A DNA stretch of 63,713 nt, the filler included, from Stramenopiles sp. TOSAG23-2 (Eukaryota), in assembly GCA_900128395.1 (NCBI GenBank). It is 14 parts of 14 records of this genome, joined end to end, with 100 filler letters (N's around TTAATTAATTAA, not from the genome) between each part and the next. Parts side by side here need not be neighbours in the genome. Positions count along the whole stretch, not along the records: positions 40,875 to 45,864 come from LT650758.1; 13 more parts are not named here. One strand, 5' to 3'. The translations under genes were made by a program, and so were the position numbers. Below are positions 5,028 to 61,095 of this stretch, piece after piece (position 1 is the first letter of the stretch; every line of letters starts with the position of its first letter). A model generated the notes under the pieces. That model had not been told where the DNA came from. It saw only the letters and a list, made by a program, of their open reading frames with translations, and made no database searches.

Positions 5028-5127
5028 NNNNNNNNNNNNNNNNNNNNNNNNNNNNNNNNNNNNNNNNNNNNTTAATTAATTAANNNNNNNNNNNNNNNNN
5101 NNNNNNNNNNNNNNNNNNNNNNNNNNN
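5028..5127. other. Artificial contig linker (N-run, TTAATTAATTAA, N-run). Same linker at 10154, 15267, 20377, 25485, 30587, 35684, 40775, 45865, 50950, 56024, 61098 and 62406
   Basis: Identical 100-nt spacers with stops in all six frames. Confidence 0.98.
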
Positions 5128-7285: not shown

Positions 7286-10153
7286 TTACAACGATGATAA
7301 TGACGACGCAGCTGTTTTCTTCCTCTTTTTTTTTGGGCTCAAACAACATCTTTCAGCAGCGCGCTTGACCAAGTGAACAGCATTGCATATTGTTCCTCTG
7401 TCGTTGTTTTTCCATTTTTTTCCCCACAATATTCCAGCTTCTTGCATTTCTCGTTGAAGCTCTTCATAATACAATTTGAAAGATTCGTTTTGATTGATTT
7501 CTGCATCTTTTTTCAATTCATTCATAGTATTACGAATTTCTGTATGAAACGAAAAATATCGAACCTGAGCATTCTGTTCAACAATCGACAAGTTTGCCAT
7601 CGAGCCACATCTATCTTTTAAACTACCTTCGGGATTAACAATCGGTGTCACGAAGTTTGTCGGCAACAATCCATCAGCAGTTGGCTTTACATAAGGATTA
7701 CTTGAAAAACGGTCAAGCTTCTTACTCCGATAATCTTCTCGTACTTCAAAGCGAGCAAAACTCGGGTTATGCAACTGTGCAAATGTACGAAGCTTCTCTG
7801 ATTTAAAAACCGTATAAGAATTCAACACCACTTTTTCATTGTCGTGATCCTCGTGTCTTAAAACATCGGCTTTTATATTGTTTAACAAAGCTATCGCTCG
7901 GCTACAACCTCTTAGTCTTTCCATAATGTGGTTACAAGACAACAACTTTAGAACGCCAGATCCATATCTTCCGAGGAATTTAAACTCCAACTTACAATGC
8001 TCCGCGACAAGCTTCAAATGCTCTGAAATTTTGCCATTATAAAAATACTCCAAATCTTTACCAAAATGCTTCTCATTGAGACGTATCGGTGTGCCATGTA
8101 GACCAGAATTTATAATTTGCTTCAACATAGAATTCAATAACTGCATTGAGTCATGGATTACCGATTGTGTTGTATTTTTTGTATAGAATAGACAACATGC
8201 TTGTTTGCGCGGCTTGTTAGGCGATGGCATTGTCTTTAGCGCCGTGGTAGTACGCTTACCATCAATGTCAATTTCAACATTCATGCTAGACAAATGTTTG
8301 TTTACGTTGGACGCAACACCTGCTGTCCAAGAATTTGCCTTCATAAATGATTTGTCTAGAAGATCATTTTCGTTAACTTTAATCCAAGCCTCTTCACCAT
8401 CAACAGGAATAATTGGTGAAATGTAATGCTTTGAACCATGGTCATACAAAGGATACATAAAGGGAAATTGATGGCATTTTAAAAGCCGATGCCAGTCTTT
8501 TTTCTCGCCTATTGCCGAAATGTATCCTGAGATATACCACCTAGGTTCAGAATTCAAATGTGTCACTTCATGATCAGTCAAAATATGGTAAGCTTTGAAT
8601 ATTTGTGGCAGCAAATCCACTAAATGTTTTTTCTGCAACAATTCTTGACCTTCGATATCAACGTCTTTACCATCTGGTTTTAAACTTCTTTTTTTTGAAT
8701 GCGAAATTCGGACACGATAGTCCAGAGAACCAGTGCCAGTTCTAATAATATCGATTACATGATTGATTTCTGGGATATTTGGAATTTGAATTCGTTTATC
8801 AAAATCTGTTTTTGAAATGATATTCACAATCAAACATGTCGTCTGTCGTGTCGAAAACCATTTTGCTAACATCACAGGCAAAAGTATTTGCATATAATGC
8901 GCATTTACTAGATCATCAGAAATCAAATATCTTTGCTCCAATAGCATCTCAATCACCGGATCCAAAGTGTCACCAACTAATGTCGGATCCCCATCATTTA
9001 ATTTTGGTTTCATATTTGTCGAATTTATTTTTGCGACAGAATAACTTGCAATTAAATACCGAATCCATTTAAGGGTACATCTTTCTGATAACAACAGTTC
9101 ACAAAAATGTATCCAGTTTTTGATTGGTATCAACGGAAATATCTTTTTTCGTAGTTGCCAAAGAGGGAATAACGCTTCGTAAGTTTTTGGATCTCCTACT
9201 TTCTGATAAAAAGCTGGAACAGTATTCCGAATCTGCTTTTCAAATCGAATCGGCGAGTCAAATGGTACTGTTTGATTTTGATCGATTAACCTTTTGAAGT
9301 CACTTAGAGTCGCCCCAGTATAATTTGTCAATAAAGTTACTTCTTCTTTCGTCTCCTTATCAATTGTAATAGGATTTGGTAATTTGCGAAGCCCGTTACG
9401 CATTTTAATCTTCCTTGTCTCAAACATTATGTCATATAATTCATTAATGACGTTGTTCGTATGTTGTAGTTTTTCCATATACGCAACACACTTAAGCGCG
9501 ATCACCAGCTTCTTTGCTTTCATAGCGATACTTTCGCCTGCTACACCGGCAACATCCAAATGAAATGTATTCCCAACAGCCTCGGCAGCTATGATTTCTT
9601 CAGGGTCTACGTTGTCAAACAATTCACTTAATTTAGAAGCAATTCGAATATTTTCATTTTCCTTAGCTTGATTGGAATCCGCGTAAGCTAACAAGTCTTG
9701 TAAATATTTTTTTAACCTTGAACACTGACTACTGGCGATAGTACCTTCCGGCAAGGAGTCAATAATTTTTATATAATCGTTTAAAGAATATATGCTTAGC
9801 TTCTTAAAACGTCTCGCATTAAATGACGAAACTTCAGCTATAAGCATTGCACGCATTTTCTTGCTAAGGTCAGAATAGTAATTGTTTCCCCGCTCCAGTT
9901 TCAACATTTTGTCAGCCCTCTTTACTTCATTTCTTGCTTCGTCATGAAGCTCAAAATGGCAAACATATATACCAACGCCATCATAGAAAGCAGCAAATGT
10001 CGGTTTTCCAACGCAATTTCTTATCACTGCAATTTCATTTCTGTTCTTAGTTTTTAGTTTTTCTGTTGGTGCGTCAAATGCATTAAGCGAGGAAAACTTT
10101 GTTAAAAACAATATCATCGACGAGTCTTTATATGGAGTAGCTTCGATTACCGC
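7286..10153 (-). CDS. Large orphan protein (>943 aa, probably 5'-truncated); possibly a divergent tyrosine recombinase
   Basis: Uninterrupted ORF that stays open to the contig end; lacks the poly-Asn tracts of many host genes; weak ordered YR-like motifs. Confidence is for the ORF, not the function. Confidence 0.75.
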   Translation of the reverse strand, partial: AVIEATPYKDSSMILFLTKFSSLNAFDAPTEKLKTKNRNEIAVIRNCVGKPTFAAFYDGVGIYVCHFELHDEARNEVKRADKMLKLERGNNYYSDLSKKMRAMLIAEVSSFNARRFKKLSIYSLNDYIKIIDSLPEGTIASSQCSRLKKYLQDLLAYADSNQAKENENIRIASKLSELFDNVDPEEIIAAEAVGNTFHLDVAGVAGESIAMKAKKLVIALKCVAYMEKLQHTNNVINELYDIMFETRKIKMRNGLRKLPNPITIDKETKEEVTLLTNYTGATLSDFKRLIDQNQTVPFDSPIRFEKQIRNTVPAFYQKVGDPKTYEALFPLWQLRKKIFPLIPIKNWIHFCELLLSERCTLKWIRYLIASYSVAKINSTNMKPKLNDGDPTLVGDTLDPVIEMLLEQRYLISDDLVNAHYMQILLPVMLAKWFSTRQTTCLIVNIISKTDFDKRIQIPNIPEINHVIDIIRTGTGSLDYRVRISHSKKRSLKPDGKDVDIEGQELLQKKHLVDLLPQIFKAYHILTDHEVTHLNSEPRWYISGYISAIGEKKDWHRLLKCHQFPFMYPLYDHGSKHYISPIIPVDGEEAWIKVNENDLLDKSFMKANSWTAGVASNVNKHLSSMNVEIDIDGKRTTTALKTMPSPNKPRKQACCLFYTKNTTQSVIHDSMQLLNSMLKQIINSGLHGTPIRLNEKHFGKDLEYFYNGKISEHLKLVAEHCKLEFKFLGRYGSGVLKLLSCNHIMERLRGCSRAIALLNNIKADVLRHEDHDNEKVVLNSYTVFKSEKLRTFAQLHNPSFARFEVREDYRSKKLDRFSSNPYVKPTADGLLPTNFVTPIVNPEGSLKDRCGSMANLSIVEQNAQVRYFSFHTEIRNTMNELKKDAEINQNESFKLYYEELQREMQEAGILWGKKWKNNDRGTICNAVHLVKRAAERCCLSPKKKRKKTAASSLSSL

Positions 10154-10654
10154 NNNNNNNNNNNNNNNNNNNNNNNNNNNNNNNNNNNNNNNNNNNNTTA
10201 ATTAATTAANNNNNNNNNNNNNNNNNNNNNNNNNNNNNNNNNNNNNNNNNNNNTATTATAGTTTTCTTAATTTGTTTTTAGCATATATTTGACCTTAATT
10301 TATGCATGCTATGATTTACTATGCCCTTCACTAGTGTTCTGACGATCCTTCCTATATGTAATGGTATAACCATAATAAAAAAACGAGGAAAAAACAGAAA
10401 ATAGAAAAAAAAGGAGGGCAATCTGGGAATAAATAGCAAATGTTGCAAATTGCAAATAGCAATAAATATAACTACAGAGTAAATAATAAATAATCAATAC
10501 TACTAATATAAACAATACAAAAATAATCTATATACTTTTGCTGCAAACAAAACGAATTCATATAGACGAATTAAACGTTCTCTGGATTATTGTGTCTAGT
10601 AGTTTTAATTTGATATTTTTTTTTAAACAAACTCAGAATTCTACACTCTACAAT

Positions 10655-11860
10655 ATGAAGCAATCGTCTATTATACAGCTTGCTGTATTTTACTTGATCC
10701 TCTTGTTGTCCAACGAAGGCATCACGGTGGCAACTAATATACGTCAAACTCGTTTCGGTGCGGAAACGAGGAAAAAAGTTAAGCATGGAATTATAAAAGT
10801 TGGGCATAAAATAGTTAAGAAAATTAAATGTTGGTTTAGTAAATTGCGTGGCGCAAAATATACTGAAGATGATCGAAAATCACATCATTGTAGCAAAGAG
10901 AGGAAACCAGTTTTTTTCAATAAGATACGTGAATCAACATCAGATAATGAATGTTGGGAAAAAGGTAAAGATCGTAAAGTCACACACGTATGTACAAGTG
11001 AATTAGCTAAATTAGGATTAAAAGAATATATTCTTACTAAAACATCAAATACAGGTAATGATCAAAGACGACGTTTATTATCAAAAGTAAGAAAGGATTG
11101 GGAAGAAGAAGAAAAGGAAGCATCCCACAATGAGGGTGTTATTAGTGACAGTGAAAACAAAGAAGAGGAAGAAGAAACCAACGATAAAAAGAAAAAAAAA
11201 GCTAGAAAAGAAAACGTAAAAAACGAAGCAGAATTTAAGAAAAAAGCAAAAAAAAAAGAACAAGAAGAAGAAAAAAAAAGGGAAAAAAAGGAAAAAGAAG
11301 AAGAAAAAAAAAGGAAAAAAAAGGAAAAAGAAGAAGAAAAAAAAAGGAAAAAAATAGAAAAAGAAGAAAAAAAAAGGAACAAAATAGAAAAAGAAGAAGA
11401 AAAAAAAAGGGAAAAAGCAATAAACGAAGAAGAGGGAAAAGAAAACACAAAACCAACATCATTGGGTAGTTGGGGTGGTGGGAGTGATTGGGATGATGCA
11501 TGGTCTGGTTTTATATCAAATGTTAATTCACATGGAGATAATGATGGTAAATGTAAAGTCCATAATAGTTTAAGTGGTATAACTGTTGATGCAGATGGTT
11601 CATATTCATTTTCATGTTCACAATCACCAGATTTATGTAATTGCATAAGTCAAGTTGGTACTGGTAGTACAAGTGCTGATACGCAATATTTTGTAAATCA
11701 AAATTTGGGTATACAGTTAGGTGTATTTAAAGATGGTGGTTTCACTGCATATGAGATATGTGAGATTAATGGTGAATGTCATGCATATGGTGATGTGAAT
11801 GATGGGATGAATGCAAGAAGAAGGAGGAGGTTGTTGGGTGATCGTAGCGGAGGTAGTTAA
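10655..11860 (+). CDS. Secreted protein with a Lys/Glu-rich linker, Cys-containing domains and two RRRLL motifs
   Basis: Signal peptide MKQSSIIQLAVFYLILLLS; KEEEKKRK repeats; DQRRRLL and ARRRRRLL. Confidence 0.7.
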   Translation: MKQSSIIQLAVFYLILLLSNEGITVATNIRQTRFGAETRKKVKHGIIKVGHKIVKKIKCWFSKLRGAKYTEDDRKSHHCSKERKPVFFNKIRESTSDNECWEKGKDRKVTHVCTSELAKLGLKEYILTKTSNTGNDQRRRLLSKVRKDWEEEEKEASHNEGVISDSENKEEEEETNDKKKKKARKENVKNEAEFKKKAKKKEQEEEKKREKKEKEEEKKRKKKEKEEEKKRKKIEKEEKKRNKIEKEEEKKREKAINEEEGKENTKPTSLGSWGGGSDWDDAWSGFISNVNSHGDNDGKCKVHNSLSGITVDADGSYSFSCSQSPDLCNCISQVGTGSTSADTQYFVNQNLGIQLGVFKDGGFTAYEICEINGECHAYGDVNDGMNARRRRRLLGDRSGGS

Positions 11861-12482
11861 TATTTTATAAAAATATAATACGTAGTATGCGCGTATTTTA
11901 ATTTTTTATTTCTACTCATGACAATTCCTACTCTCCAGAGAATACAGTGACTGAGCCAATATTAATATCTATCATTAGCTTGCGGCGGCGCATGAGAGCT
12001 TTATTATAGTAGGAGTAAATCCTTTTCTTAGATTGAGTATTGAGCATAATATTCTTCAGGAGATATAAAATTATTTATTATATATAACTTAGATTTTAAA
12101 CTGCGTGTAAAATAATTTAAAAATATCTTGTGTTTAAAATCTTAAAAATTCGACATCATATACATATCATATTTGATGGTTAAAATTTAAGTTATAATAA
12201 TTTTTATCTCTCCAGTGGTAAATACTATGCTCAATTTAATGTTAGCCATTTGTTTCAAAGATAAAATTGCTAAATCACAAAAACCTCCTTGCGTGTTCAT
12301 CCCGAATGGATATATAGTTGGTGCTGGCCGATCTCCGTATACATATCATATATATCTAGTGTAGTAGTAAATACTTTCAGGTTTCAGGAGCAACATGAGT
12401 ATGGTTATGATATGCGTATGGTATTTTAATCTAAGTTAACGATAATGTTCAATCTCTCGTAAATACTATTTTTCGTTCAGCT

Positions 12483-14480
12483 CTAGTTGCAATCACCACC
12501 GTCGTATTTACATGCATTCGAGTTACATTCACTGTCACATTCCCCATCTTGTTTATATCTATTTGGGCAATATATTGAACATTGGGGGACACACCCTGCC
12601 CCATCGTGTTTTATAAGATCTTGCATTTTTTTAGAAGCGCTACCTTCTATCCACCCATTTGAACATACAGGGTTATTATGAAGATATATTCGTTGTAACG
12701 CCTCGAGTGAGTCCAAAATATTAGGAAGAGCTTCAATAGCATTATTTCTTATATCAAAATCTATTAGCCGCACTAAATTTCCTACTTCGCTAGGTATATT
12801 TGTAATGTTATTATTATTATGTAATTTTAAAAATTGAAGTGATGTTGCATCACCTATAGCTGTAGGGATCTTGTTGATGTCGTTTCCATCAGCATGAAGC
12901 AACACAATATCCAATGCAAATAATTCATTTGGCAATTCATATAAAGTATTGTTACTCATCAGTAACTCTGTCAAGGTTTTCGAGGAGCTTATTGATGGTG
13001 AAATGGTTGAAATATTGTTGTTATCTAATTCCAACAAAAACATGTATTCATTGCCCCAAACATTATCTGATAAATTTTCCAGTTTGTTGTTTTCTAAATG
13101 CAATTTATTATATTTCATTTTTCCTAAAGCATCCGGTACTTTAATTAATGTATTAAAGCTAAAATCTAATTCCCTTACTTTGTCAAATTTTGCATCAATA
13201 TCACTTGGTATTATTTTTAATGGGCCGTGATTAATTTGCATTATTTTCAATGCATTCATATTATATATTTCACTTGGAAATTCTGTCCAATTATGCTTTC
13301 GTACATTTAAAACAGCACAATTACATGTTGGTGAAAAAATGGTTCCACAAAATGGTGTTTTAACGATACAACTGTCCCATAACGTTACTTCGCATGTAGT
13401 TTCATTGACCGATGAAATCAACGCTAACTGTACTATTGCTACAATCAAAAATAAAATGCCAAATGAAAATTTGCATATACCAGCCCCCATATGAACACAA
13501 TATGGAACAAATAGTTGTTGTTGATCGCTAATTTCATAATGACTTAATCTTCGGAACAAACTTTTCCGTCTTCTACTAGCTCTGAAAGAAGCTTGTTCTT
13601 GTGCTTTTAGCGTTGCCATGGCTGTACGAGATCGAATGATTTCTTCTAAAATGGTATCTAATTTCATTAATATTGTAAATGCAGGATAGATACTAACTTG
13701 TATCATTTCTTCTATGGATATTGGAATCTTGTAACCAAACCACAGAATAATCAACGGCAAAGCAATACATAAAAAATCGACTAATGTATCAATGATAATT
13801 TGCCTGTCTCTTCTATTGGGATCATTTTTTCGTACCATGAAGCTAACTGTATGAAAACTATCGATACTGAGAGCGATGCATAAAATCGATGTTATTTCTA
13901 CTGGCAACGAACAGGTATAAATAGTAAACAGATTATTTATTTGATTAAGAGATTCCAACATTTCTAATGTATATAATTGCCATAAATAATATTTCCCAAA
14001 TATTTGAAAATCATTATATCTTATTTTTGTTTTTTGAAAACATGTGTTGGTGTTAGTGTCATCTTTGTTTTCTTTATCTTCAAATGTTTTTTCCTCTTCG
14101 ATAAAATCATTGACCATTTTTTTCCAGCGACCTAGATAATATATAACAAATAGCAGAAATAAACAGGCCATTACAATAAATACCCAGACATAATCTCGAT
14201 CGAAATTTCGAAAAGAGGCTGTATATGGATACAGCAAATATATGAACAATAAAGCCATTACTAATGAGAAACACATTACTAATACACCATTCCATCCAAC
14301 ATGGCTACAAAACGTGACTGAAACTTTTACGATAGCTTGGTTATCCATGTCATTATTGCTGCTACTGTTATCCTTGTTGTTGTTTTTATTCTTGTTATTA
14401 CCGCTGCCACTTTTGTTGTGTACAACATTGTCATTGTAACTTGTCAGCTGCACCTCTTTTGCAGTGACCGCTTCCTGCAT
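12483..14480 (-). CDS. Multipass membrane protein with LRRs and a C-terminal LNR (Lin12/Notch) repeat
   Basis: About 6-7 hydrophobic segments, LxxLxLxxN repeats, terminal CPNRYKQDGECDSECNSNACKYDGGDC. Confidence 0.8.
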   Translation of the reverse strand: MQEAVTAKEVQLTSYNDNVVHNKSGSGNNKNKNNNKDNSSSNNDMDNQAIVKVSVTFCSHVGWNGVLVMCFSLVMALLFIYLLYPYTASFRNFDRDYVWVFIVMACLFLLFVIYYLGRWKKMVNDFIEEEKTFEDKENKDDTNTNTCFQKTKIRYNDFQIFGKYYLWQLYTLEMLESLNQINNLFTIYTCSLPVEITSILCIALSIDSFHTVSFMVRKNDPNRRDRQIIIDTLVDFLCIALPLIILWFGYKIPISIEEMIQVSIYPAFTILMKLDTILEEIIRSRTAMATLKAQEQASFRASRRRKSLFRRLSHYEISDQQQLFVPYCVHMGAGICKFSFGILFLIVAIVQLALISSVNETTCEVTLWDSCIVKTPFCGTIFSPTCNCAVLNVRKHNWTEFPSEIYNMNALKIMQINHGPLKIIPSDIDAKFDKVRELDFSFNTLIKVPDALGKMKYNKLHLENNKLENLSDNVWGNEYMFLLELDNNNISTISPSISSSKTLTELLMSNNTLYELPNELFALDIVLLHADGNDINKIPTAIGDATSLQFLKLHNNNNITNIPSEVGNLVRLIDFDIRNNAIEALPNILDSLEALQRIYLHNNPVCSNGWIEGSASKKMQDLIKHDGAGCVPQCSIYCPNRYKQDGECDSECNSNACKYDGGDCN

Positions 14481-40769: not shown

Positions 40770-40874
40770 TCTTANNNNNNNNNNNNNNNNNNNNNNNNNN
40801 NNNNNNNNNNNNNNNNNNTTAATTAATTAANNNNNNNNNNNNNNNNNNNNNNNNNNNNNNNNNNNNNNNNNNNN

Positions 40875-41204
40875 ATATTTCTCTGGTTTTAATTCTTCAC
40901 TGTGAACATTATTTTTCAATACAACAATTTTTGGACTTTTTTCCTTCAGTTTAATGAAGTAATCAAAATGCTTTGATTTACGGGAGATAGAAGTTAATTT
41001 ATAAAACACATCTTCCTCATATTCTTTAATGGTTGATATATAATCAGGTTGAATCTTGTTGGGCAACACTTCCGTTCTTTTCTTCTTCTTATAATAGTAA
41101 CAAGTTGTTATACCATAATCATTGTCTTCTGTCTCAAAACAATGTTTTCTTATCAAATGACCAGGTATAAAGTATTCTTTTCCTTCATAAAAAAAAATGG
41201 ACAT
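40875..41204 (-). CDS. Viral hypothetical protein, truncated
   Basis: K/Y-rich ORF running into the gap. Confidence 0.55.
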
Positions 41205-41293
41205 ATATATTAGCTAAATATTATAAAGTTGTTAGTAGGCGGAATTTAGGATATAACAAATAAATTTAAAGAACCACAACCATTTTTATATAT

Positions 41294-41791
41294 ATGAGTC
41301 AGGCAGCAACAGAAGTATTTAATAATTCAGACTTAGCTAAGTTAATATATACATATGATTCTACCTATAAAGAGATTTTTTTGAATGTTTTACAGGAGTT
41401 TGAAGATATAACCGGGGATATAATTTGTAAATACAAATATAGGTATTACCCATCAGATGATTCTGATAATGAATATGTATATAGGGATATATACCCATCA
41501 GATGATAATTCTGATGATGATGAAGAAGAGGATGAAGATGATGTTTCTCCGCATTTTATGGTAGAAATAGATAGTGAAGATGATGAAGAAGATTTTATAA
41601 TAAAAAATATCTATAATTGTAAAGACTTCTTTCATCTTTTTCAATTATGCCCTAGTCTTATTTCATATTATAGTTGTGAAGATTATTATGAAGAAAAACA
41701 TGATAAATATTATGAAAGAAAACACGAACTTGATAACTCAATAAGAGAATGGAGGGAAGAGTTATGGGAAGAGTTTAATAATGAATTCTAA
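41294..41791 (+). CDS. Acidic viral hypothetical protein
   Basis: 165-aa D/E-rich ORF inside the element; N-terminal LIYTYDSTYKEIF. Confidence 0.6.
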   Translation: MSQAATEVFNNSDLAKLIYTYDSTYKEIFLNVLQEFEDITGDIICKYKYRYYPSDDSDNEYVYRDIYPSDDNSDDDEEEDEDDVSPHFMVEIDSEDDEEDFIIKNIYNCKDFFHLFQLCPSLISYYSCEDYYEEKHDKYYERKHELDNSIREWREELWEEFNNEF

Positions 41792-41837
41792 TGTAGTCTA
41801 AATTATCTGTTTTGCCTATCATAACACCACATAATAT

Positions 41838-42108
41838 TGATTTTCCAAAACATCAAAACTACCTGTTGCGTGAGCCTGTGATTTTTCAAAACATCAAAAC
41901 TACCTGCTGCGTGAACCTGTGATTTTCCTAAAAATCAAAACTACCTGCTGTGTGAACCTGTGATTTTCCAAAACATCAAAACTACCTGTTGCATGAGCCT
42001 GTGATTTTCCAAAAAATCAAAACTACCTGCTGTGTAGACCTGTGATTTTCCAAAACCATCAAAACTACCTGTTGTGTAGACCTGTGATTTTCCAAAAAAT
42101 CAAAACTA
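41838..42108. repeat. 41-bp tandem repeat, about 6.6 copies, with an internal TGATTTT..AAAATCA dyad
   Basis: Units start at 41838, 41879, 41920, 41961, 42002, 42043 and 42085. Confidence 0.92.
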
Positions 42109-42205
42109 ATAGTATTGATTTTTTACCAAATCAAAAGAAGAATCTTAAAATATCTTTTGTGATTTAGCTAAAAAATCAATAATATAATATTACAATAATA
42201 TAATA

Positions 42206-43015
42206 ATGACTGACCTAAATATATACCAAGTGATGCCAGAAGAAGATGAGCACAATGTTAAAAGAGAACTTCATGAACATTTGCCAAATGTTTATAAAGC
42301 AGAGGCACTTCTTCTTGTATCTCCCCTAAGAGGAGGAAAAACTTCTTTAATATGTAATTTATTGGAAAGAGAAGAATTCTATAAGGACTTGTTTAATAAT
42401 TTAGATATTATTTCACCCATGGTTGGACAGGACAGTTCCTGGCGATTTTTATACCAAAAATACAAGAATGCTTGCCACTTACAATATGACGATTCAGTTA
42501 TACAACATATTATGGATAGACAGCAAGGGTTAATGGAAAATGATGAAGATACTAGCTATTGTGTTGTGTGCAATGATATTCTTGGACAAATTCCAGCCTC
42601 ATGCACTAGAAAAGGAAACCTGTTAACATATTGGTTATGCTGATTTAGGCACTATGTGAAGAAGCCTGACCCATGTTTATTTATTTTAAGCACACAAAAG
42701 TTTAGAGAAGTGAATGCGACACTCTGTGCCAATTCAACTGGTGTATTTATTAGCAGTAATATCCGAAACCAAAAGGAGATAGAAGTGTTAGCAGAGGAAT
42801 ATGCTGATACAATGGGCGGAAAAGAAGTATTTTACAAAATGTTAAATTATGTAAGAAAAGAAAAATACCAGTGGCTCTATCTTCAATTGACTACAGGCAA
42901 AGCATTTAAAAATTTTACGGAAATGCTATACAATGGTGATAAACTGTTGATTGGTAAAGGAGAAAAGGGAGATTTAGAAGAAGAAGAAGAAGAGATTTCA
43001 TCAGATGAAGATTAA
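42206..43015 (+). pseudogene. A32/FtsK-HerA-type DNA packaging ATPase with an in-frame TGA at 42641
   Basis: Walker A SPLRGGKT; degenerate Walker B CVVCND; *FRHY Arg motif; LSTQ motif. The two track ORFs are in the same frame. Confidence 0.85.
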
Positions 43016-43046
43016 CAGTTATTATTTTCTTGTTGAATTATATATT

Positions 43047-43649
43047 ATGTTTTCCACTTATGGTATTGAAAATTACGGAGCAGCAGATTTCAACGGCTTT
43101 AGAAACGATGTTATGGACAGGCACCAAGGTTATTTAAACAAAGAAAGTGCTTTACACCAGATAAATGTTTTAGCAAAAAGTAACAAGTTAGCTGCTGCAA
43201 GACAACAGTTTGCTCAAGGAACAGCACTTGTAAACAGAGGAGTAGAAATTGCTTCTACCGTTCCAACAACAGCACTGGTAGCACAAAAAATAGCAAATAG
43301 AGTTTCTACATTTGCGAAAACATCATCCACTCTTGCAAATGAAACGGGTGAAGCAACTGAAGGAATAGAATTACAAGATGTTGGGGATACGGCAGCAGTA
43401 AATACAACAGAAGATATAACCGAAGGTGTTGTTACAGATGTTGTAGCAGACTCAGCTTTAGGTGTTGTGGGGCTGTTAGCAGGTGCTGTCCAATTAGGCT
43501 TTGGGCTGTATGACTTATTTGAAGGCGATGCCAAGGAAGAAAAAGGCAAAAGTGATGAGACAGCTGCCAAAGCAACAAATATCCAGCCACCAAGACAGCA
43601 AATGAATTATGCAGAGTCATATGTAGCTCCAGTCAGTAGTGTAGTTTAG
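43047..43649 (+). CDS. Ala/Gly/Thr-rich viral protein with a hydrophobic helix (candidate virion or membrane-active protein)
   Basis: SALGVVGLLAGAVQLGFGLYDLF; sits between the ATPase and capsid genes. Confidence 0.6.
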   Translation: MFSTYGIENYGAADFNGFRNDVMDRHQGYLNKESALHQINVLAKSNKLAAARQQFAQGTALVNRGVEIASTVPTTALVAQKIANRVSTFAKTSSTLANETGEATEGIELQDVGDTAAVNTTEDITEGVVTDVVADSALGVVGLLAGAVQLGFGLYDLFEGDAKEEKGKSDETAAKATNIQPPRQQMNYAESYVAPVSSVV

Positions 43650-43688
43650 AAGAAATGGATTAATTTTTTATATAATATTATATATAAA

Positions 43689-45176
43689 ATGAATCAGAAT
43701 GTTCAAACACAAAGTGTGTCTTTAAAAACACAAAGGCAAATAGATTTTGTGGCAGAAAATATAGCTGTTATATCCATCCCACCAGCGGAAGTGCCAATGT
43801 TGTATGGTAAGCAGACGTATCTCAGATTTAATATCTTGATGGATGGTAATTGTAAAGGAATGCCTGATGATGCTGCTGCTGCTGCGAGTCTTATAGAAAG
43901 AATAGAGGTCTGGACTTTAGATAATCAGGCTATGCTGGAAAATATTATTGATTACAACAACTTATCAGTGACAAGAAACTTTTATGAAAATAATGATGCT
44001 ATGACAAATTTAGATGGAATTATTGAAGGTTACTCACCAAATGATTCACTTTCAAGCATATATTTTGATATGCCTTCTAGTGCTAGTCAATTAGGTTCTA
44101 CATTATTTAGGCAAGTAGAGGTATGTTTACCATTAAGATTATCTAGTGTATTTTATAAAAAAGTATTTCCTGTGTTAGCAGTTAGTGGAATTCAATTAAA
44201 GGTTCATTTTGCGCAAAACAATAAATCATTAAGAGCTTATACCGCAACAGGATTTAGCGCAGCTACTGGTTTTGAATTGAAAGTAGCATTACCAGAGTCA
44301 CCGCAAACTCAGTTGGTGTTGAAAAATACAGGAGCGGAGGCTGCTACATTAGCTAATTGCCCATTTGTGGTGGATACAAGCAAACTGCATACTATTCAAT
44401 ATGTAGATAATAATGGAGGCACAAAAAATGCGGGAACGTTGGATGGTATGTCTTTAGATGCTTCAGGTTGTATTGTGTTATCTTCATCTAGTTTTACACC
44501 TGATATTAGTGCCAATGCTGGAAACAAAGTGTTTTTATCAACTAGTAATTTAGATTTAAGTTACAAGGTGAAACATTGTGAATTAATTGCGTGTGTAGTT
44601 GAACCAGCTAAGGGATACCTACAATCAATGAATAAAAAGCTTAAAGAAGATGGTGCCATTACAATGGATATTTATTCTTGGAACAATTATAAAAACAATG
44701 TTAGTTTGAATGAAATGACAACTCAGCAATTAGTCCCCTGTCAGGAGGAACGAGCGTGCTCTTTAGTAAATAACCTATATAATCCCCAATATAGCTTTAC
44801 AACCAATGACTTGAAGCCAATCATTGATGGCTTACAACATTATCAAATGAATATTCACAATCAACTCATTCCGAACCGAGTGGTTGATACTAGTAGATTT
44901 TCAACTACCGGATTGGGATTCAATGCGATAAGTATTAGTGAAACCACCAAAACATTAAGCAGATGCTTCCCTGTAAGAAAAGAGAACGAAAATGGAAAAC
45001 ACTTTACATTTGGACGCGAAGTTAGTAAAGAAGGATATAGTTCAAATCTTAGGGATACAGACGTCCGCGTGAATATGTTTTTTAATTCTCCAGCAGTGAA
45101 CAAACTATTATATTCCAACGTATATCATTTAAGAAGAATCAAAGTAACTGATAATGGCATTACTGTTACTTTTTAG
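43689..45176 (+). CDS. Double-jelly-roll capsid-like protein 1 (PLV type)
   Basis: TYLRFNI...ASLIERIEV...LENIIDYN; VCLPL; FPVLAVSGIQLKV; YQMNIHNQLIP; beta-rich C-terminus; 495 aa. Confidence 0.75.
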   Translation: MNQNVQTQSVSLKTQRQIDFVAENIAVISIPPAEVPMLYGKQTYLRFNILMDGNCKGMPDDAAAAASLIERIEVWTLDNQAMLENIIDYNNLSVTRNFYENNDAMTNLDGIIEGYSPNDSLSSIYFDMPSSASQLGSTLFRQVEVCLPLRLSSVFYKKVFPVLAVSGIQLKVHFAQNNKSLRAYTATGFSAATGFELKVALPESPQTQLVLKNTGAEAATLANCPFVVDTSKLHTIQYVDNNGGTKNAGTLDGMSLDASGCIVLSSSSFTPDISANAGNKVFLSTSNLDLSYKVKHCELIACVVEPAKGYLQSMNKKLKEDGAITMDIYSWNNYKNNVSLNEMTTQQLVPCQEERACSLVNNLYNPQYSFTTNDLKPIIDGLQHYQMNIHNQLIPNRVVDTSRFSTTGLGFNAISISETTKTLSRCFPVRKENENGKHFTFGREVSKEGYSSNLRDTDVRVNMFFNSPAVNKLLYSNVYHLRRIKVTDNGITVTF

Positions 45177-45215
45177 TTTATTTTAGAAATATTTTTTTAT
45201 CTGTATCTAAAATAA

Positions 45216-45864
45216 ATGAATTCAGTTCAGCAATTTGAAATAGCACCAATTCAATGTCCAATCCAAGGAGTATACAGTAAAAAAAATGGCTCTGGTATTT
45301 TAACATTTTCAATTGGAGCTACAGAACAATGGTTACTCCCACATAGTTGCCATCTACAAATGAAGATACGAGTCCTCCAAGGTGACGGAAATAGACCAAA
45401 TAATAACTCACAAGCAGGTGGTGTAGCAAAAAATGTGACATTAGATTCTAGAACTGGTGGGATAGGTGTAATTGATTCTGTTATGGTAAATACAAAACGC
45501 GGACGAACATTGGAACACGGAAGAAACTACACGCGTATGTCAGGGACAATTTTACCCAATACAAAAAGTTGGGAGGATTATACCACATATATGAGTAATG
45601 TATATGGAAGTGTAGCAAATTCATTTGCCGAAGATAGAATGACTAATAGAGACATACTTGTATCTCAACCGCTTCTTTTAGGAACATTTAGTGGTGAACC
45701 TATCCCCCTTGGAATGAAAAATGGTGTAGGTGGGTTAGATATAATGATTTATTTACAAAATAATCCTAGTGCTATTTTTGGAGCAAACGCATCTGAATCT
45801 GGTGGGGCTTACTATGAAATACTGGAATGCTCTCTAACAGGTAAATATATGAATCCTGCTAGTG
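45216..45864 (+). CDS. Capsid-like protein 2 (putative paralog), truncated by the gap
   Basis: LTFSI...GVIDSVMV...LEHGRNY; PLLLG; IPL..GVGGLDIMIYL follow the same motif order as protein 1. Confidence 0.72.
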
Positions 45865-46069
45865 NNNNNNNNNNNNNNNNNNNNNNNNNNNNNNNNNNNN
45901 NNNNNNNNTTAATTAATTAANNNNNNNNNNNNNNNNNNNNNNNNNNNNNNNNNNNNNNNNNNNNTGTATACATTATTAATAACACACAATATATATTATA
46001 TACCATATAGAAAGTAGTACATACAGATAAAGAATATTATTACTAAATAAAAAAAAAGAAATTTTAAGC

Positions 46070-47146
46070 ATGTCATCTTTATCCACAAATGATATAGATT
46101 TTGAAGACGAAGACGAAGATTATGAAGAGTTAGATCCATCGTTACAAAATATTGTTGATATGAAAACATTAAAATGGATTTTTGTTGGTGGTAAAGGTGG
46201 TGTTGGTAAAACGACGACATCGTCTTGCTTAGCAGTGACATTATCAAAACATGGTGAAAAAGTATTAATAGTATCGACTGATCCAGCGCATAATGTTAGT
46301 GATGCATTTTCACAAAAATTTAGCAGTGAACCAACACTTGTTAATGGTTTTGATAATTTATTTGCAATGGAAATCGATCCAAAACTACCGCAAGAAGCTT
46401 TGTTTGGAGGAAATGGCGCTGGTGTAGAAGGATTGGATGATGGTGGTAGTGGTGGACTAGGCAGCTTAATGAAAGATTTAACCGCAGCTGTTCCTGGTAT
46501 TGATGAAGCTATGAGTTTTGCAGAGTTAATGAAACAAGTGCAAACAATGGATTATGACGTAATTATCTTTGATACGGCACCAACTGGCCATACATTACGT
46601 TTATTGAGTTTTCCAACTGTCATGGAAGGTGCATTTAGTAAAATCATGGCATTGAAAGATCGTTTTTCTGGAATGTTTGGTCAAATTGCAGGTATGTTTG
46701 GTGGTGGTGCAAATATGCCATCACAAGAAATGATGATGGAAAAATTGGAAGCGACAAGAGCTGTTATTGAGAAAGTAAATATACAATTTCAAGATCCATT
46801 ACGTACGACATTTGTATGTGTATGTATACCTGAATTTTTATCTGTATATGAAACGGAACGTTTAGTCCAGGAATTAGCAAAATTTGGTATCGATGTACAT
46901 AATATCGTTGTAAATCAAGTGTTAATACCACCGCAAACATGGAAACCAACTGAAAACCAATGGGCAGATAAAAAAGTCGCTGCAAGGCAACGTATGCAAA
47001 ATAAATACCTGGAACAAATTTTCGATTTATATGAAGATTTTCATATCATAACCATGCCATTGCTTGATAATGAAGTTAGAGGTGTCGATCGTTTAAAACA
47101 TTTTTCACAATATTTATTAGATCCATATGTACCAGAGGAGAAGTAA
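46070..47146 (+). CDS. GET3: Tail-anchored protein targeting ATPase (ASNA1/TRC40)
   Basis: [42 protein letters not shown]. Confidence 0.95.
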
Positions 47147-56125: not shown

Positions 56126-58321
56126 AATATATCAACTTCACATAATAATAATAATAATAATAATAATTTCACAAAGGGCATTTCTTCTTCATCCAAAGAC
56201 TTTATTAAGAATTATAATAATAATAATTTTCAACACGGCTATGAGAATTGTAATAATAAATTATACAAACATCAATATCAATATTATCATAAACAACAAC
56301 CATTTTTATTTAAAATACATAATAGGACATTTGTAACTGAAGAGAAACAAAGAGAAGATACGAAAAAAAAAGATAAAAAGAAAGATAGCGACGACGAGGA
56401 GGAAAAACCAGCTGAAGGTGGATTTTTTTCCACAATATTTTCTGAAATTAAACAGGAATTAGATAAGAATGAAGATTTGAAAGAAAATTTGGATAAACTA
56501 TCAAAGTTAAAAGAGGATACCGAGAAAAAAGCAAATGAATATAAACCTCAAAACAAAGTAGCACAAGAAAAAGCTGAAGAAGCAGCGAAAGAAGCACAAA
56601 AAAAAGCTACGGAAGCAGCAGAGGCAGCTAAAAAAAAATCGGAAGATATGTATAAACAAGCAGAAAGTATGAAAGATTCTTTTAGCAAGCGATTTAAAAA
56701 TATTACTGATACTATCAATGAAAAAGCAGAAAAAATAGAGGAAGATAGTGATTCCGTACGGGAAGCGAAAAAAAAAGCATTCGAAGCAGCTGAAAAAGCT
56801 AAGAAAGAAGCGGAGAAAATTACTAGTACATCATCTTTTCAAAATATAGCTGGTACGTTTCAAGAAGTCATAAAGGAAGGCAAAGATGATTTATTTGGTG
56901 CGGACAAGGAAACTCGTAAAGCAAAACGTGATAGTAGGAAAAAAATGCGTGAAAGGCGTGCGGAGCGAAGAGATGCTAGAAGAGAGAAAGAACGTTTAGC
57001 AAAAGAAGCAGCTATAAAAAAAGAACAGGGGGAAGAACCGGATGATGCAGATGGGGCGGATGGTGGTAATGCAAAAAGTGGTGCAGCTGCAGAATGGGCT
57101 GAAGCAGTGGACGAAGAATCTGGTGATATATATTATTATAATATTAAATCAGGTGAAACAACATGGGAACAGCCGGAAGGATATGGTGCCAGTGATGGCG
57201 ATAACGAAGCAACTGGTGGTAATGATGATGATAGTGATACAACTAGTAATGATGATAACGAAGGAGATCAAGATAATGAAGATGCGGAAGATACATATCC
57301 TGTAATTGATGAAGCAGAAGCTAAGGCATATTTTGACGGGTTTGATACCGCTGGCAATGGTGTTATAGGTGAAGAACAATTTGATGATTTAGTAGATTTA
57401 ATTCATGAAGGACGACCTGACTTAGCTATTCCGCAGGACAGAGTTGAAGTACTTGGTGCACTGGAAGTTATGGATCCAGATGCTAAAGGTACTGTTAAAT
57501 TGGAAAATTATTTACAATGGATTGAAGCATATACGGCATCAGGTGGTAAATCACATGGAGAGCAAATTGGTGGTGGTGCCATTATATTACGTGGGGATAT
57601 TGAAACGGCATGGCAACGTGTTGGTGAACGTCTACGAAAGGCCCCGTTGATTGATGATATTTTAGGTGCATCTGAATTTGCTGGTAGACAGTTTGAAGAC
57701 ACTGAACTTGGTAAAAGTACTCGTAATGTGCGTGACCGTGTGTCAAATCTCCGGGAAGATGCATTGGAAACGTGGGAAACTAGTCAAAATCCATGGGTAT
57801 ACCGCTTTGCATCTGCTTATGATGGACTTACTGGCGAGACTGAACAAGGACAAGCTATGAAAGAATTAAGACGGTTGGATCCATCATGGGATTTATTGGA
57901 ATGGTTGGAAGAAGTCCAGGATGAAATTGCACCTGCATTATTGAAAGGTTATTTAGAAGGTGATAATGAGATTATTGATTATTATTGTGTTGATCAAGCT
58001 GCCGCTGTCATTAAAGCTACTAATAAAGATAATAAATTAGCAGGAAAAATACCTGATAATAATATATTAGATTTACGTGGTGTAGAGTTATTAGCAGCAC
58101 GAGTTTTACAAAGGGCGCCACCTATTTTGGTAGTTAAATTTAATGCGCAACAATTAGATTGTGTACGTAATAATAAAGGCGAAATCGTGGAAGGAAGTGA
58201 TGATCAAGTTTCAAACAATTTTTACTATGCAGCTATGCAACGAAATTGGGATGAAGAAGCTGAGGAATTACGATGGAATGTTTTGGAATTTCAGGTAATT
58301 GGTAAACTGCCATGGAATTAG
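56126..58321 (+). CDS. TIM44: Tim44-like mitochondrial import protein with WW and EF-hand inserts (5'-truncated)
   Basis: Tim44 C-domain (DPSWDL, PILVVKFNAQQLDCVRNNKGEIVEG); WW domain (W..GDIYYYN..GETTWEQP); two EF-like loops; frame open to the contig edge. Confidence 0.82.
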   Translation, partial: NISTSHNNNNNNNNFTKGISSSSKDFIKNYNNNNFQHGYENCNNKLYKHQYQYYHKQQPFLFKIHNRTFVTEEKQREDTKKKDKKKDSDDEEEKPAEGGFFSTIFSEIKQELDKNEDLKENLDKLSKLKEDTEKKANEYKPQNKVAQEKAEEAAKEAQKKATEAAEAAKKKSEDMYKQAESMKDSFSKRFKNITDTINEKAEKIEEDSDSVREAKKKAFEAAEKAKKEAEKITSTSSFQNIAGTFQEVIKEGKDDLFGADKETRKAKRDSRKKMRERRAERRDARREKERLAKEAAIKKEQGEEPDDADGADGGNAKSGAAAEWAEAVDEESGDIYYYNIKSGETTWEQPEGYGASDGDNEATGGNDDDSDTTSNDDNEGDQDNEDAEDTYPVIDEAEAKAYFDGFDTAGNGVIGEEQFDDLVDLIHEGRPDLAIPQDRVEVLGALEVMDPDAKGTVKLENYLQWIEAYTASGGKSHGEQIGGGAIILRGDIETAWQRVGERLRKAPLIDDILGASEFAGRQFEDTELGKSTRNVRDRVSNLREDALETWETSQNPWVYRFASAYDGLTGETEQGQAMKELRRLDPSWDLLEWLEEVQDEIAPALLKGYLEGDNEIIDYYCVDQAAAVIKATNKDNKLAGKIPDNNILDLRGVELLAARVLQRAPPILVVKFNAQQLDCVRNNKGEIVEGSDDQVSNNFYYAAMQRNWDEEAEELRWNVLEFQVIGKLPWN

Positions 58322-58899: not shown

Positions 58900-61095
58900 C
58901 TAATTCCATGGCAGTTTACCAATTACCTGAAATTCCAAAACATTCCATCGTAATTCCTCAGCTTCTTCATCCCAATTTCGTTGCATAGCTGCATAGTAAA
59001 AATTGTTTGAAACTTGATCATCACTTCCTTCCACGATTTCGCCTTTATTATTACGTACACAATCTAATTGTTGCGCATTAAATTTAACTACCAAAATAGG
59101 TGGCGCCCTTTGTAAAACTCGTGCTGCTAATAACTCTACACCACGTAAATCTAATATATTATTATCAGGTATTTTTCCTGCTAATTTATTATCTTTATTA
59201 GTAGCTTTAATGACAGCGGCAGCTTGATCAACACAATAATAATCAATAATCTCATTATCACCTTCTAAATAACCTTTCAATAATGCAGGTGCAATTTCAT
59301 CCTGGACTTCTTCCAACCATTCCAATAAATCCCATGATGGATCCAACCGTCTTAATTCTTTCATAGCTTGTCCTTGTTCAGTCTCGCCAGTAAGTCCATC
59401 ATAAGCAGATGCAAAGCGGTATACCCATGGATTTTGACTAGTTTCCCACGTTTCCAATGCATCTTCCCGGAGATTTGACACACGGTCACGCACATTACGA
59501 GTACTTTTACCAAGTTCAGTGTCTTCAAACTGTCTACCAGCAAATTCAGATGCACCTAAAATATCATCAATCAACGGGGCCTTTCGTAGACGTTCACCAA
59601 CACGTTGCCATGCCGTTTCAATATCCCCACGTAATATAATGGCACCACCACCAATTTGCTCTCCATGTGATTTACCACCTGATGCCGTATATGCTTCAAT
59701 CCATTGTAAATAATTTTCCAATTTAACAGTACCTTTAGCATCTGGATCCATAACTTCCAGTGCACCAAGTACTTCAACTCTGTCCTGCGGAATAGCTAAG
59801 TCAGGTCGTCCTTCATGAATTAAATCTACTAAATCATCAAATTGTTCTTCACCTATAACACCATTGCCAGCGGTATCAAACCCGTCAAAATATGCCTTAG
59901 CTTCTGCTTCATCAATTACAGGATATGTATCTTCCGCATCTTCATTATCTTGATCTCCTTCGTTATCATCATTACTAGTTGTATCACTATCATCATCATT
60001 ACCACCAGTTGCTTCGTTATCGCCATCACTGGCACCATATCCTTCCGGCTGTTCCCATGTTGTTTCACCTGATTTAATATTATAATAATATATATCACCA
60101 GATTCTTCGTCCACTGCTTCAGCCCATTCTGCAGCTGCACCACTTTTTGCATTACCACCATCCGCCCCATCTGCATCATCCGGTTCTTCCCCCTGTTCTT
60201 TTTTTATAGCTGCTTCTTTTGCTAAACGTTCTTTCTCTCTTCTAGCATCTCTTCGCTCCGCACGCCTTTCACGCATTTTTTTCCTACTATCACGTTTTGC
60301 TTTACGAGTTTCCTTGTCCGCACCAAATAAATCATCTTTGCCTTCCTTTATGACTTCTTGAAACGTACCAGCTATATTTTGAAAAGATGATGTACTAGTA
60401 ATTTTCTCCGCTTCTTTCTTAGCTTTTTCAGCTGCTTCGAATGCTTTTTTTTTCGCTTCCCGTACGGAATCACTATCTTCCTCTATTTTTTCTGCTTTTT
60501 CATTGATAGTATCAGTAATATTTTTAAATCGCTTGCTAAAAGAATCTTTCATACTTTCTGCTTGTTTATACATATCTTCCGATCTTTTTTTAGCTGCCTC
60601 TGCTGCTTCCGTAGCTTTTTTTTGTGCTTCTTTCGCTGCTTCTTCAGCTTTTTCTTGTGCTACTTTGCTTTGAGGTTTATATTCATTTGCTTTTTTCTCG
60701 GTATCCTCTTTTAACTTTGATAGTTTATCCAAATTTTCTTTCAAATCTTCATTCTTATCTAATTCCTGTTTAATTTCAGAAAATATTGTGGAAAAAAATC
60801 CACCTTCAGCTGGTTTTTCCTCCTCCTCGTCGCTATCTTTCTTTTTATCTTTTTTTTTCGTATCTTCTCTTTGTTTCTCTTCAGTTACAAATGTCCTATT
60901 ATGTATTTTAAATAAAAATGGTTGTTGTTTATGATAATATTGATATTGATGTTTGTATAATTTATTATTACAATTCTCATAGCCTTGTTGAAAATTATTA
61001 TTATTATAATTCTTAATAAAGTCTTTGGATGAAGAAGAAATGCCCTTTGTGAAATTATTATTATTATTATTATTATTATGTGAAGTTGATATATT
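58900..61095 (-). CDS. TIM44: Inverted second copy of the Tim44-like gene
   Basis: Near-identical protein (N>S and K>R within the track ORF). Confidence 0.75.
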   Translation of the reverse strand, partial: NISTSHNNNNNNNNFTKGISSSSKDFIKNYNNNNFQQGYENCNNKLYKHQYQYYHKQQPFLFKIHNRTFVTEEKQREDTKKKDKKKDSDEEEEKPAEGGFFSTIFSEIKQELDKNEDLKENLDKLSKLKEDTEKKANEYKPQSKVAQEKAEEAAKEAQKKATEAAEAAKKRSEDMYKQAESMKDSFSKRFKNITDTINEKAEKIEEDSDSVREAKKKAFEAAEKAKKEAEKITSTSSFQNIAGTFQEVIKEGKDDLFGADKETRKAKRDSRKKMRERRAERRDARREKERLAKEAAIKKEQGEEPDDADGADGGNAKSGAAAEWAEAVDEESGDIYYYNIKSGETTWEQPEGYGASDGDNEATGGNDDDSDTTSNDDNEGDQDNEDAEDTYPVIDEAEAKAYFDGFDTAGNGVIGEEQFDDLVDLIHEGRPDLAIPQDRVEVLGALEVMDPDAKGTVKLENYLQWIEAYTASGGKSHGEQIGGGAIILRGDIETAWQRVGERLRKAPLIDDILGASEFAGRQFEDTELGKSTRNVRDRVSNLREDALETWETSQNPWVYRFASAYDGLTGETEQGQAMKELRRLDPSWDLLEWLEEVQDEIAPALLKGYLEGDNEIIDYYCVDQAAAVIKATNKDNKLAGKIPDNNILDLRGVELLAARVLQRAPPILVVKFNAQQLDCVRNNKGEIVEGSDDQVSNNFYYAAMQRNWDEEAEELRWNVLEFQVIGKLPWN

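Follow-up and report, generated by a model that had tools for sequence, protein, structure and literature searches.

The usual arrangement in Polinton-like viruses (PLVs) is that of a major capsid protein (MCP) gene adjoining the gene for the minor capsid protein (mCP), as given in Yutin et al. 2015 (PMC4642659) and in Bellas and Sommaruga 2021 (PMC7805220). The former also reports the duplication, as well as the triplication, of the MCP gene in PLVs, and its supplementary file 1 gives for PLV-SPO3 three tandem, co-oriented coding sequences annotated as 'Major capsid protein', all on the complement strand: SPO3_12 (12222-14021), SPO3_11 (10754-12163) and SPO3_10 (9141-10679). The Trimcap group was named around PLV-SPO3 and, according to Bellas and Sommaruga 2021, all of its members (39/39) encode three distinct MCP genes; endogenous MCPs of the Trimcap type have also been described in unclassified stramenopiles (Bellas et al. 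2023, PMC10120064). The present work deals with a locus in a 63,713-nucleotide stretch of DNA from Stramenopiles sp. TOSAG23-2 (assembly GCA_900128395.1), hereafter the window, in which one contig (LT650758.1) carries two consecutive open reading frames (ORFs), ORF1 and ORF2, that very probably encode a pair of divergent MCP paralogs with the double-jelly-roll fold, from a multi-MCP PLV. The contig, with virus-like genes only, is a fragment of a PLV or of an endogenous viral element, and is best explained as part of a PLV of Trimcap/group X type, be it a free virus or an endogenous element of a protist.

Trimcap/group X viruses, with three distinct MCP genes, are described as abundant in three 2026 preprints (including 10.64898/2026.06.19.733378 and 10.64898/2026.05.28.728513), and preprints of that year count multi-MCP PLVs among the most abundant small eukaryotic DNA viruses of the sea. 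One 2026 preprint states that the three MCP lineages are stably maintained, and one presents AlphaFold 3 (AF3) predictions for Trimcap B, with an interface predicted template modelling score (ipTM) of 0.89 for the heterotrimer versus 0.19-0.25 for the homotrimers. Tandem divergent MCPs are a known hallmark of multi-MCP (Trimcap-like) PLVs and not a new one; the earlier note on this DNA, made from the sequence alone, had pointed to such multi-MCP groups, and rightly, these being the Trimcap/group X viruses. The locus opens no new question, for this arrangement was already published in 2015 and a published MCP alignment includes a close relative of ORF1. The way in which a single capsid is assembled from three divergent proteins is so far known from predictions only. 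What the locus adds is a clean example in which the homology between the paralogs is visible to deep profiles only, in which one of the two has a double-jelly-roll model of high confidence, and in which the motif order alone is enough for a first-pass recognition of such gene pairs.

The likeness to Trimcap/group X viruses lies in the highly divergent MCP genes standing in tandem on one strand (head to tail, with a spacing of 39 bp) within an AT-rich, virus-like fragment that also bears an ATPase-like gene. Comparisons with the sequences in the supplement of Yutin et al. 2015 were made by eye. In its MCP alignment (supplementary file 3), gene_9_PbE04_5236140 appears near-identical to ORF1, differing from it at about nine of the first ~110 aligned residues; it was thus handled as a PLV MCP already in 2015. 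The record PbE04_5236140 contributes one gene only to that alignment, its handle occurring twice (trimmed and untrimmed), so an ORF2-type paralog adjoining it was apparently not included in 2015. Sequences of the ORF2 type could be recognised in gene_7_contig0015, gene_4_PbL05_5236139 and gene_11_PLV-SPO3, alongside another MCP type that comes from those contigs. P0158, a match of the ORF2-family search (E 8e-15), closely resembles gene_7_contig0015, and an exact look-up of eight motifs from SPO3_11, gene_7 of contig0015 and gene_4 of PbL05 among 160 proteins found one of them, an 8-mer present in P0136 and P0158. Within PLV-SPO3, SPO3_11, in the middle, belongs to the ORF2 type, and SPO3_12, which lies upstream of it, bears a long insertion where ORF1 has its own, after strand H of the first jelly roll. 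The order ORF1-ORF2 matches, therefore, the first two of the three genes of PLV-SPO3, and a third MCP gene is predicted just beyond the contig end.

Two other systems invite comparison. Multiple MCP genes are reported to be common in Nucleocytoviricota, with several double-jelly-roll MCP genes per genome (e.g., the Vp54 paralogs of PBCV-1 and the capsid paralogs of mimivirus), and the model of the ORF2 family superposes on the MCPs Vp54, EhV-201 and SGIV. However, those viruses have hundreds of genes, whereas the genome expected here is small and much of it would be devoted to capsid genes, and the Pfam family Capsid_NCLDV matches neither ORF1, nor ORF2, nor any of the 98 members of the ORF2 family used for alignment. 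The second is the penton of Polintons, PLVs and virophages, whose gene usually adjoins that of the MCP and whose jelly-roll fold is shared with the first half of the MCP; unlike such single-jelly-roll proteins, the ORF2 family has two predicted jelly rolls and aligns over MCP lengths.

Homology between ORF1 and ORF2

The earlier note had proposed that five N-terminal motifs follow the same order in both ORFs. This stood for four of them, which are found literally and in the same order: LxF/M (L45-F47, LRF, in ORF1; L47-M49, LQM, in ORF2), (S/G)(L/V)I(E/D)xxxV (SLIERIEV at 67; GVIDSVMV at 84), LExxxxY (LENIIDY at 83; LEHGRNY at 99) and PL (148; 152). It did not stand for the fifth, GxxLxI/V, literal only in ORF1 (GIQLKV at 167), as ORF2 has GGLDI, off by one residue. 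The two longest motifs, in order, never appeared in 20000 shuffles of either protein (0/20000).

Each paralog has its own conserved family. A word-indexed search with ORF1 found seven full-length homologs with 39-98% identity (P0001 at 98%), and the same kind of neighbours for ORF2 appeared at a different length: the search in its own length range gave one odd match, and the longer range, around 440 amino acids (aa), gave P0009 (441 aa, 94% identical over all 216 residues) and P0010-P0012. Because these relatives, P0009 among them, are ~440 aa long, ORF2 corresponds to the N-terminal half of a ~440-aa protein, and its truncation is explained by the end of the 4990-bp contig, with which its last base coincides. 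P0009 is encoded on a contig of 13.9 kb, and P0003 and P0006 on contigs of 27.9 and 34.7 kb. An exhaustive profile search extended the ORF2 family to 251 representatives at E <= 1e-3 (179 at E <= 1e-10), mostly of 430-480 aa. The ORF1 lineage looks small with its seven homologs, a number that is not comparable with the size of the ORF2 family, since ORF1 was searched by word index only and ORF2 exhaustively. Pattern scans of genome contigs for the ORF1 and ORF2 families returned 42 and 39 pattern matches, respectively, none of them confirmed by tblastn; tblastn with P0009 against a phage collection gave no match, and neither did a search of the PDB sequences with ORF1 and ORF2.

Two further proteins, P0008 and P0013, match ORF2 only in a central block (~residues 52-250), beyond which they continue with unrelated sequence, and a PF01041 domain is precomputed for P0008. 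Both are probably products of low-quality assemblies, either chimeras or frameshifted predictions, and were left out of the ORF2-family alignments, including the one with 98 sequences.

The similarity between both paralogs depends, for its significance, on the depth of the profiles: it is null by BLASTP, marginal with shallow profiles and strong with deep ones. BLASTP of ORF1 against ORF2 gave nothing (best E 0.73), and hhalign with shallow profiles (8 versus 5 sequences) gave an E of 1.4e-3 and a probability of 17.7%, restricted to the N-terminal ~150 residues. With the ORF1 profile (8 sequences) against that of the ORF2 family (98 sequences), the local alignment reached a probability of 97.5% and an E of 5.3e-12 over 253 columns (residues 24-398 of ORF1 against 29-314 of the ORF2 family), and the global alignment of the same profiles a probability of 98.6% and an E of 1e-14 over 373 columns, running through both proteins from end to end. 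Such a profile-profile alignment was the check proposed in the earlier note, and its outcome is mutual homology. The identity in these alignments is 15-17%, and the columns holding the motifs of ORF1 and of the ORF2 family are placed opposite each other. The controls, a reversed ORF1 alignment and 20 column shuffles (20/20), did not exceed a score of 22.0 (E 0.059 or higher), the real comparison scoring 93.5.

The hidden Markov model (HMM) of the ORF2 family gives a similar picture, since it matches all eight ORF1-family sequences (8/8) with 20.7-53.8 bits, ORF1 itself having 20.7 bits. Run against all 351 peptides from the six frames of the window, it recovers only ORF2 (E 8e-72) and ORF1 (E 2.7e-6), with the next one at E 0.14; no third MCP was found among these peptides, the other contigs being unrelated. 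Taken as profile evidence, all this shows the two families to be homologous over their full length.

Predicted folds of the two proteins

The fold of the ORF2 family was approached through P0009, whose AlphaFold 2 (AF2) model, built with the 98-sequence alignment, has a predicted local distance difference test (pLDDT) of 92.4 and a predicted template modelling score (pTM) of 0.90. The model consists of two strand blocks, 3-213 and 224-430, the first jelly roll being closed by the strand 199-213. ORF2 stops at residue 216, that is, just past this closing strand, and has in the window the first jelly roll only, because the contig ends near the border of the two jelly rolls.

A Foldseek search of the P0009 model against the PDB yielded 229 matches at E <= 1e-3. 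Among the matches listed, 27 out of 27 are double-jelly-roll capsid or scaffold proteins aligned over ~500 columns, including EhV-201 (E 1.3e-14), SGIV, Vp54 of PBCV-1, the MCPs of Sputnik and mavirus, D13 of vaccinia and the MCP of faustovirus, and the best structural matches lie between E 1e-14 and 1e-10. Against BFVD there were 101 matches at E <= 1e-3; of the 50 listed, 36 are named, all of them as capsid or scaffold proteins (36/36), and 14 are unnamed. Structure prediction thus shows a double-jelly-roll fold for the ORF2 family. A single-jelly-roll penton, which the earlier note had named as the finding that would speak against its proposal, is not what the model displays for ORF2: two jelly rolls are predicted, with matches to MCPs. 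Together with the full-length homology, this bears out the proposal of that note that the locus holds two divergent paralogs of the MCP type and not an MCP beside an unrelated penton.

For ORF1, the sequence comparison suggests the same fold with an addition. Relative to the ORF2 family, it has about 100 extra β-rich residues (~186-285), flanked by the parts of ORF1 that correspond to strands 174-180 and 199-213 in the model of P0009, H and I of its first jelly roll. ORF1 would be, according to this alignment, also a double-jelly-roll protein, with an insertion of ~100 residues in the H-I loop of its first jelly roll. Weak support for this fold also comes from language-model features of ORF1, which resemble clusters of capsid proteins of nucleocytoplasmic large DNA viruses (NCLDV) and of Pox_Rif.

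Several observations weigh against the reading of two double-jelly-roll MCP paralogs from a Trimcap-like virus. The AF2 model of ORF1 itself, made with an 8-sequence alignment, is poor (pLDDT 42.3), and its Foldseek matches are weak and mixed (template modelling scores of 0.12-0.22), PRD1 P3, the MCP of STIV and a capsid chain of PBCV-1 being mingled with enzymes and tail proteins of phage N4; hence, the double-jelly-roll reading of ORF1 rests on the full-length profile homology. The second jelly roll of ORF2 comes from a 94%-identical protein encoded elsewhere. No curated capsid family in Pfam or PHROG matches ORF1 or ORF2, nor does any capsid family of Pfam match the members of the ORF2 family (0/98), although PLV MCPs are reported to escape curated family profiles. 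One of the 50 BFVD matches listed bears the label 'Penton capsid protein [Adintovirus sp.]'; this protein has 663 aa and is aligned over 560 columns, so its label is no sign of a single jelly roll. Regarding the virus, the likeness to the Trimcap references was judged by eye only, and, unlike Trimcap/group X viruses, two MCP genes are visible here (the contig ending inside the second), with no penton candidate on the 5-kb fragment. Lastly, the ATPase-like gene has no match in Pfam, PHROG or the PDB sequences, and it is interrupted by an in-frame TGA.

Proposed capsid assembly and competing explanations

If ORF1 and ORF2 belong to a Trimcap-like virus, their products might co-assemble, in line with the heteromeric capsid suggested in the earlier note, into pseudo-hexameric heterotrimers with one subunit per type, forming an asymmetric capsomer from whose outer face the H-I loop insertion of ORF1 would project, and a separate penton with a single jelly roll would fill the vertices. 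The chances that the paralogs do form such mixed heterotrimers may be put as even. This assembly would include a third MCP, whose gene would follow ORF2 on the missing DNA, as in PLV-SPO3, and by analogy with that virus its presence there is somewhat favoured. The earlier note had placed a possible third copy beyond a gap after ORF2, but the gap turned out to be a joiner between unrelated contigs and not a scaffold gap; within the window, a third copy in that place is ruled out, since the sequence that comes next is another contig, and nothing downstream of ORF2 in the window belongs to the element with the capsid genes.

Are the two paralogs, in spite of being real double-jelly-roll MCPs, kept apart in the virion? 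They might form homotrimers used at different positions of the capsid or at different times, in which case no third gene would be required. The paralogy and the fold are the same under this explanation as under that of a mixed capsomer, different positions or times have been proposed for the MCP paralogs of giant viruses (in Nucleocytoviricota, with their common multiple MCP genes), and Yutin et al. 2015 list duplications of the MCP besides triplications. On the other hand, the AF3 scores cited above for Trimcap B favour the heterotrimer, albeit for a different group and as a prediction only, and the gene order, judged by eye, is that of the first two of the three tandem MCP genes of PLV-SPO3. 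Unmixed homotrimers are, on balance, a tentative and rather unlikely alternative.

Another explanation is that of a decaying endogenous element, its MCP genes being relics of which one or both are on the way to becoming pseudogenes or to acquiring a host function. The ATPase-like gene provides an argument for it. It consists of two ORFs in one frame, parted by a single TGA, with a Walker-A-like GGKTS and a motif order that resembles by eye that of the A32-like packaging ATPases in the ATPase alignment of Yutin et al. 2015, which makes it a candidate for an A32-like packaging ATPase. The TGA sits two codons before a conserved-looking RH motif, and the Walker B, as seen by eye, reads ND instead of DD. 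Under the standard code, five of the 28 ORFs of at least 150 aa in the window end in TGA (5/28), and no TGA interrupts the long ORFs on the other contigs. TGA seems to be a genuine stop in the assembly, so the ATPase-like gene is either disabled or mis-sequenced. Eukaryotic-type genes (e.g., ArsA/Get3) on other contigs of the window also fit a decaying endogenous element. Nonetheless, ORF1 has an undamaged reading frame and shares 98% identity with P0001, ORF2 runs without a stop as far as the contig does and has a 94%-identical relative of 441 aa that is intact, the contig shows no host flank, and one stop might stem from a sequencing error, the assembly being a draft. Decay of the capsid genes is, in view of this, quite unlikely.

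A reading of TGA as a sense codon, which would have joined the two halves of the ATPase, was considered separately and rejected: internal TGA codons are missing from the long ORFs elsewhere, and several ORFs end at TGA.

Less probable still, and to be regarded as a long shot, are two more unusual scenarios. Either the locus is an endogenous protist element of the Trimcap type with a disabled ATPase and both capsid paralogs intact and conserved, or the small lineage of ORF1, with its H-I insertion, represents a distinct two-MCP type or a new Trimcap subgroup, with an asymmetric, decorated capsomer. The former, if true, would point to a retention of the capsid genes for a role on the host side, for instance a defence particle against giant viruses.

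Finally, it is scarcely credible that ORF1 is the MCP and ORF2 the mCP, that is, a penton whose single jelly roll resembles the first one of the MCP: the shallow-profile similarity confined to the N-terminal part, the single jelly roll spanned by the fragment of ORF2 in the window, the usual PLV arrangement of an MCP beside an mCP and the one 'penton' label in BFVD would suit it, but the full-length relatives of ORF2 have ~440 aa and two jelly rolls modelled with high confidence, they align over ~500 columns to double-jelly-roll MCPs, and the homology to ORF1 continues through the second half.

Layout of the window and neighbouring genes

The preferred reading, that of two MCP paralogs on a fragment of a Trimcap-like PLV, concerns a single piece of the window, whose features are collected in the table along with those that delimit it. 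The sequence TTAATTAATTAA occurs 13 times in the window versus 0.14 times expected, each time with 49 N on either side, and these joiners (N49-TTAATTAATTAA-N49) split the window into 14 pieces of decreasing length, from 5027 to 1208 bp. Since the N runs are joiners, adjacency across any of them is artificial, and findings that span a linker need to be re-read.

Table. Position and description of the features of the capsid-gene contig and its surroundings in the window
Feature	Position	Strand	Remarks
Joiners	5028-5127, 10154-10253, ... 40775-40874, 45865-45964, ...		Artificial
Contig with both capsid genes	40875-45864		4990 bp, GC content 33%, cut at both ends
ORF, 3' part past contig end	40875-41204	-	~109 aa visible; function unassigned
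Acidic ORF	41294-41791	+	165 aa; function unassigned
Tandem array	41838-42108		41-bp unit, 6.6 copies, 89% matches; intergenic, upstream of ATPase-like gene
P-loop ATPase-like ORF	42206-43015	+	269 codons, one in-frame TGA (42641-42643); motif order by eye
Ala/Thr-rich ORF	43005-43649	+	214 aa (200 aa from ATG 43048); between ATPase-like gene and ORF1
ORF1, MCP paralog 'a' (probable)	43689-45176	+	495 aa; profile homology to ORF2 family
ORF2, MCP paralog 'b' (probable)	45216-45864	+	First 216 aa, open to contig end; relatives ~440 aa
Artificial joiner N49-TTAATTAATTAA-N49	45865-45964		After ORF2 end
ArsA/Get3 gene	46070-47146		On different contig; Pfam ArsA_ATPase, E 5.4e-105

Regarding the remaining genes of the contig, the truncated ORF at its left end has a single match, weak and below the cut-off, to DUF7863 (E 0.031), and the acidic ORF has no family match in Pfam or PHROG. 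The tandem array that follows them might serve as an origin or in regulation, or might belong to a terminal repeat. The Ala/Thr-rich ORF has no significant match in Pfam or PHROG; it contains the hydrophobic stretch VVGLLAGAVQLGFGLY, and its product is possibly a minor virion or membrane protein. Its internal ATG is the likelier start, because the longer version of the ORF overlaps the end of the ATPase-like gene.

On another contig (56124-61097) there are two inverted open frames of 731 codons each, 56126-58321 (+) and 58900-61095 (-), with antisense frames that are equally long and whose TGA codons fall at the same positions; the contig has the appearance of a large inverted duplication or of a fold-back made in assembly.

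The motif ATATAATATTA is located, in the whole window, only at 42182-42192 and 43670-43683, preceding the start codon of the ATPase-like gene by 14 bases and that of ORF1 by 9. Counting both strands, it has three matches versus 0.69 expected, and two of 100 shuffles also reach three, so that, with these marginal statistics, it is a possible shared promoter element.

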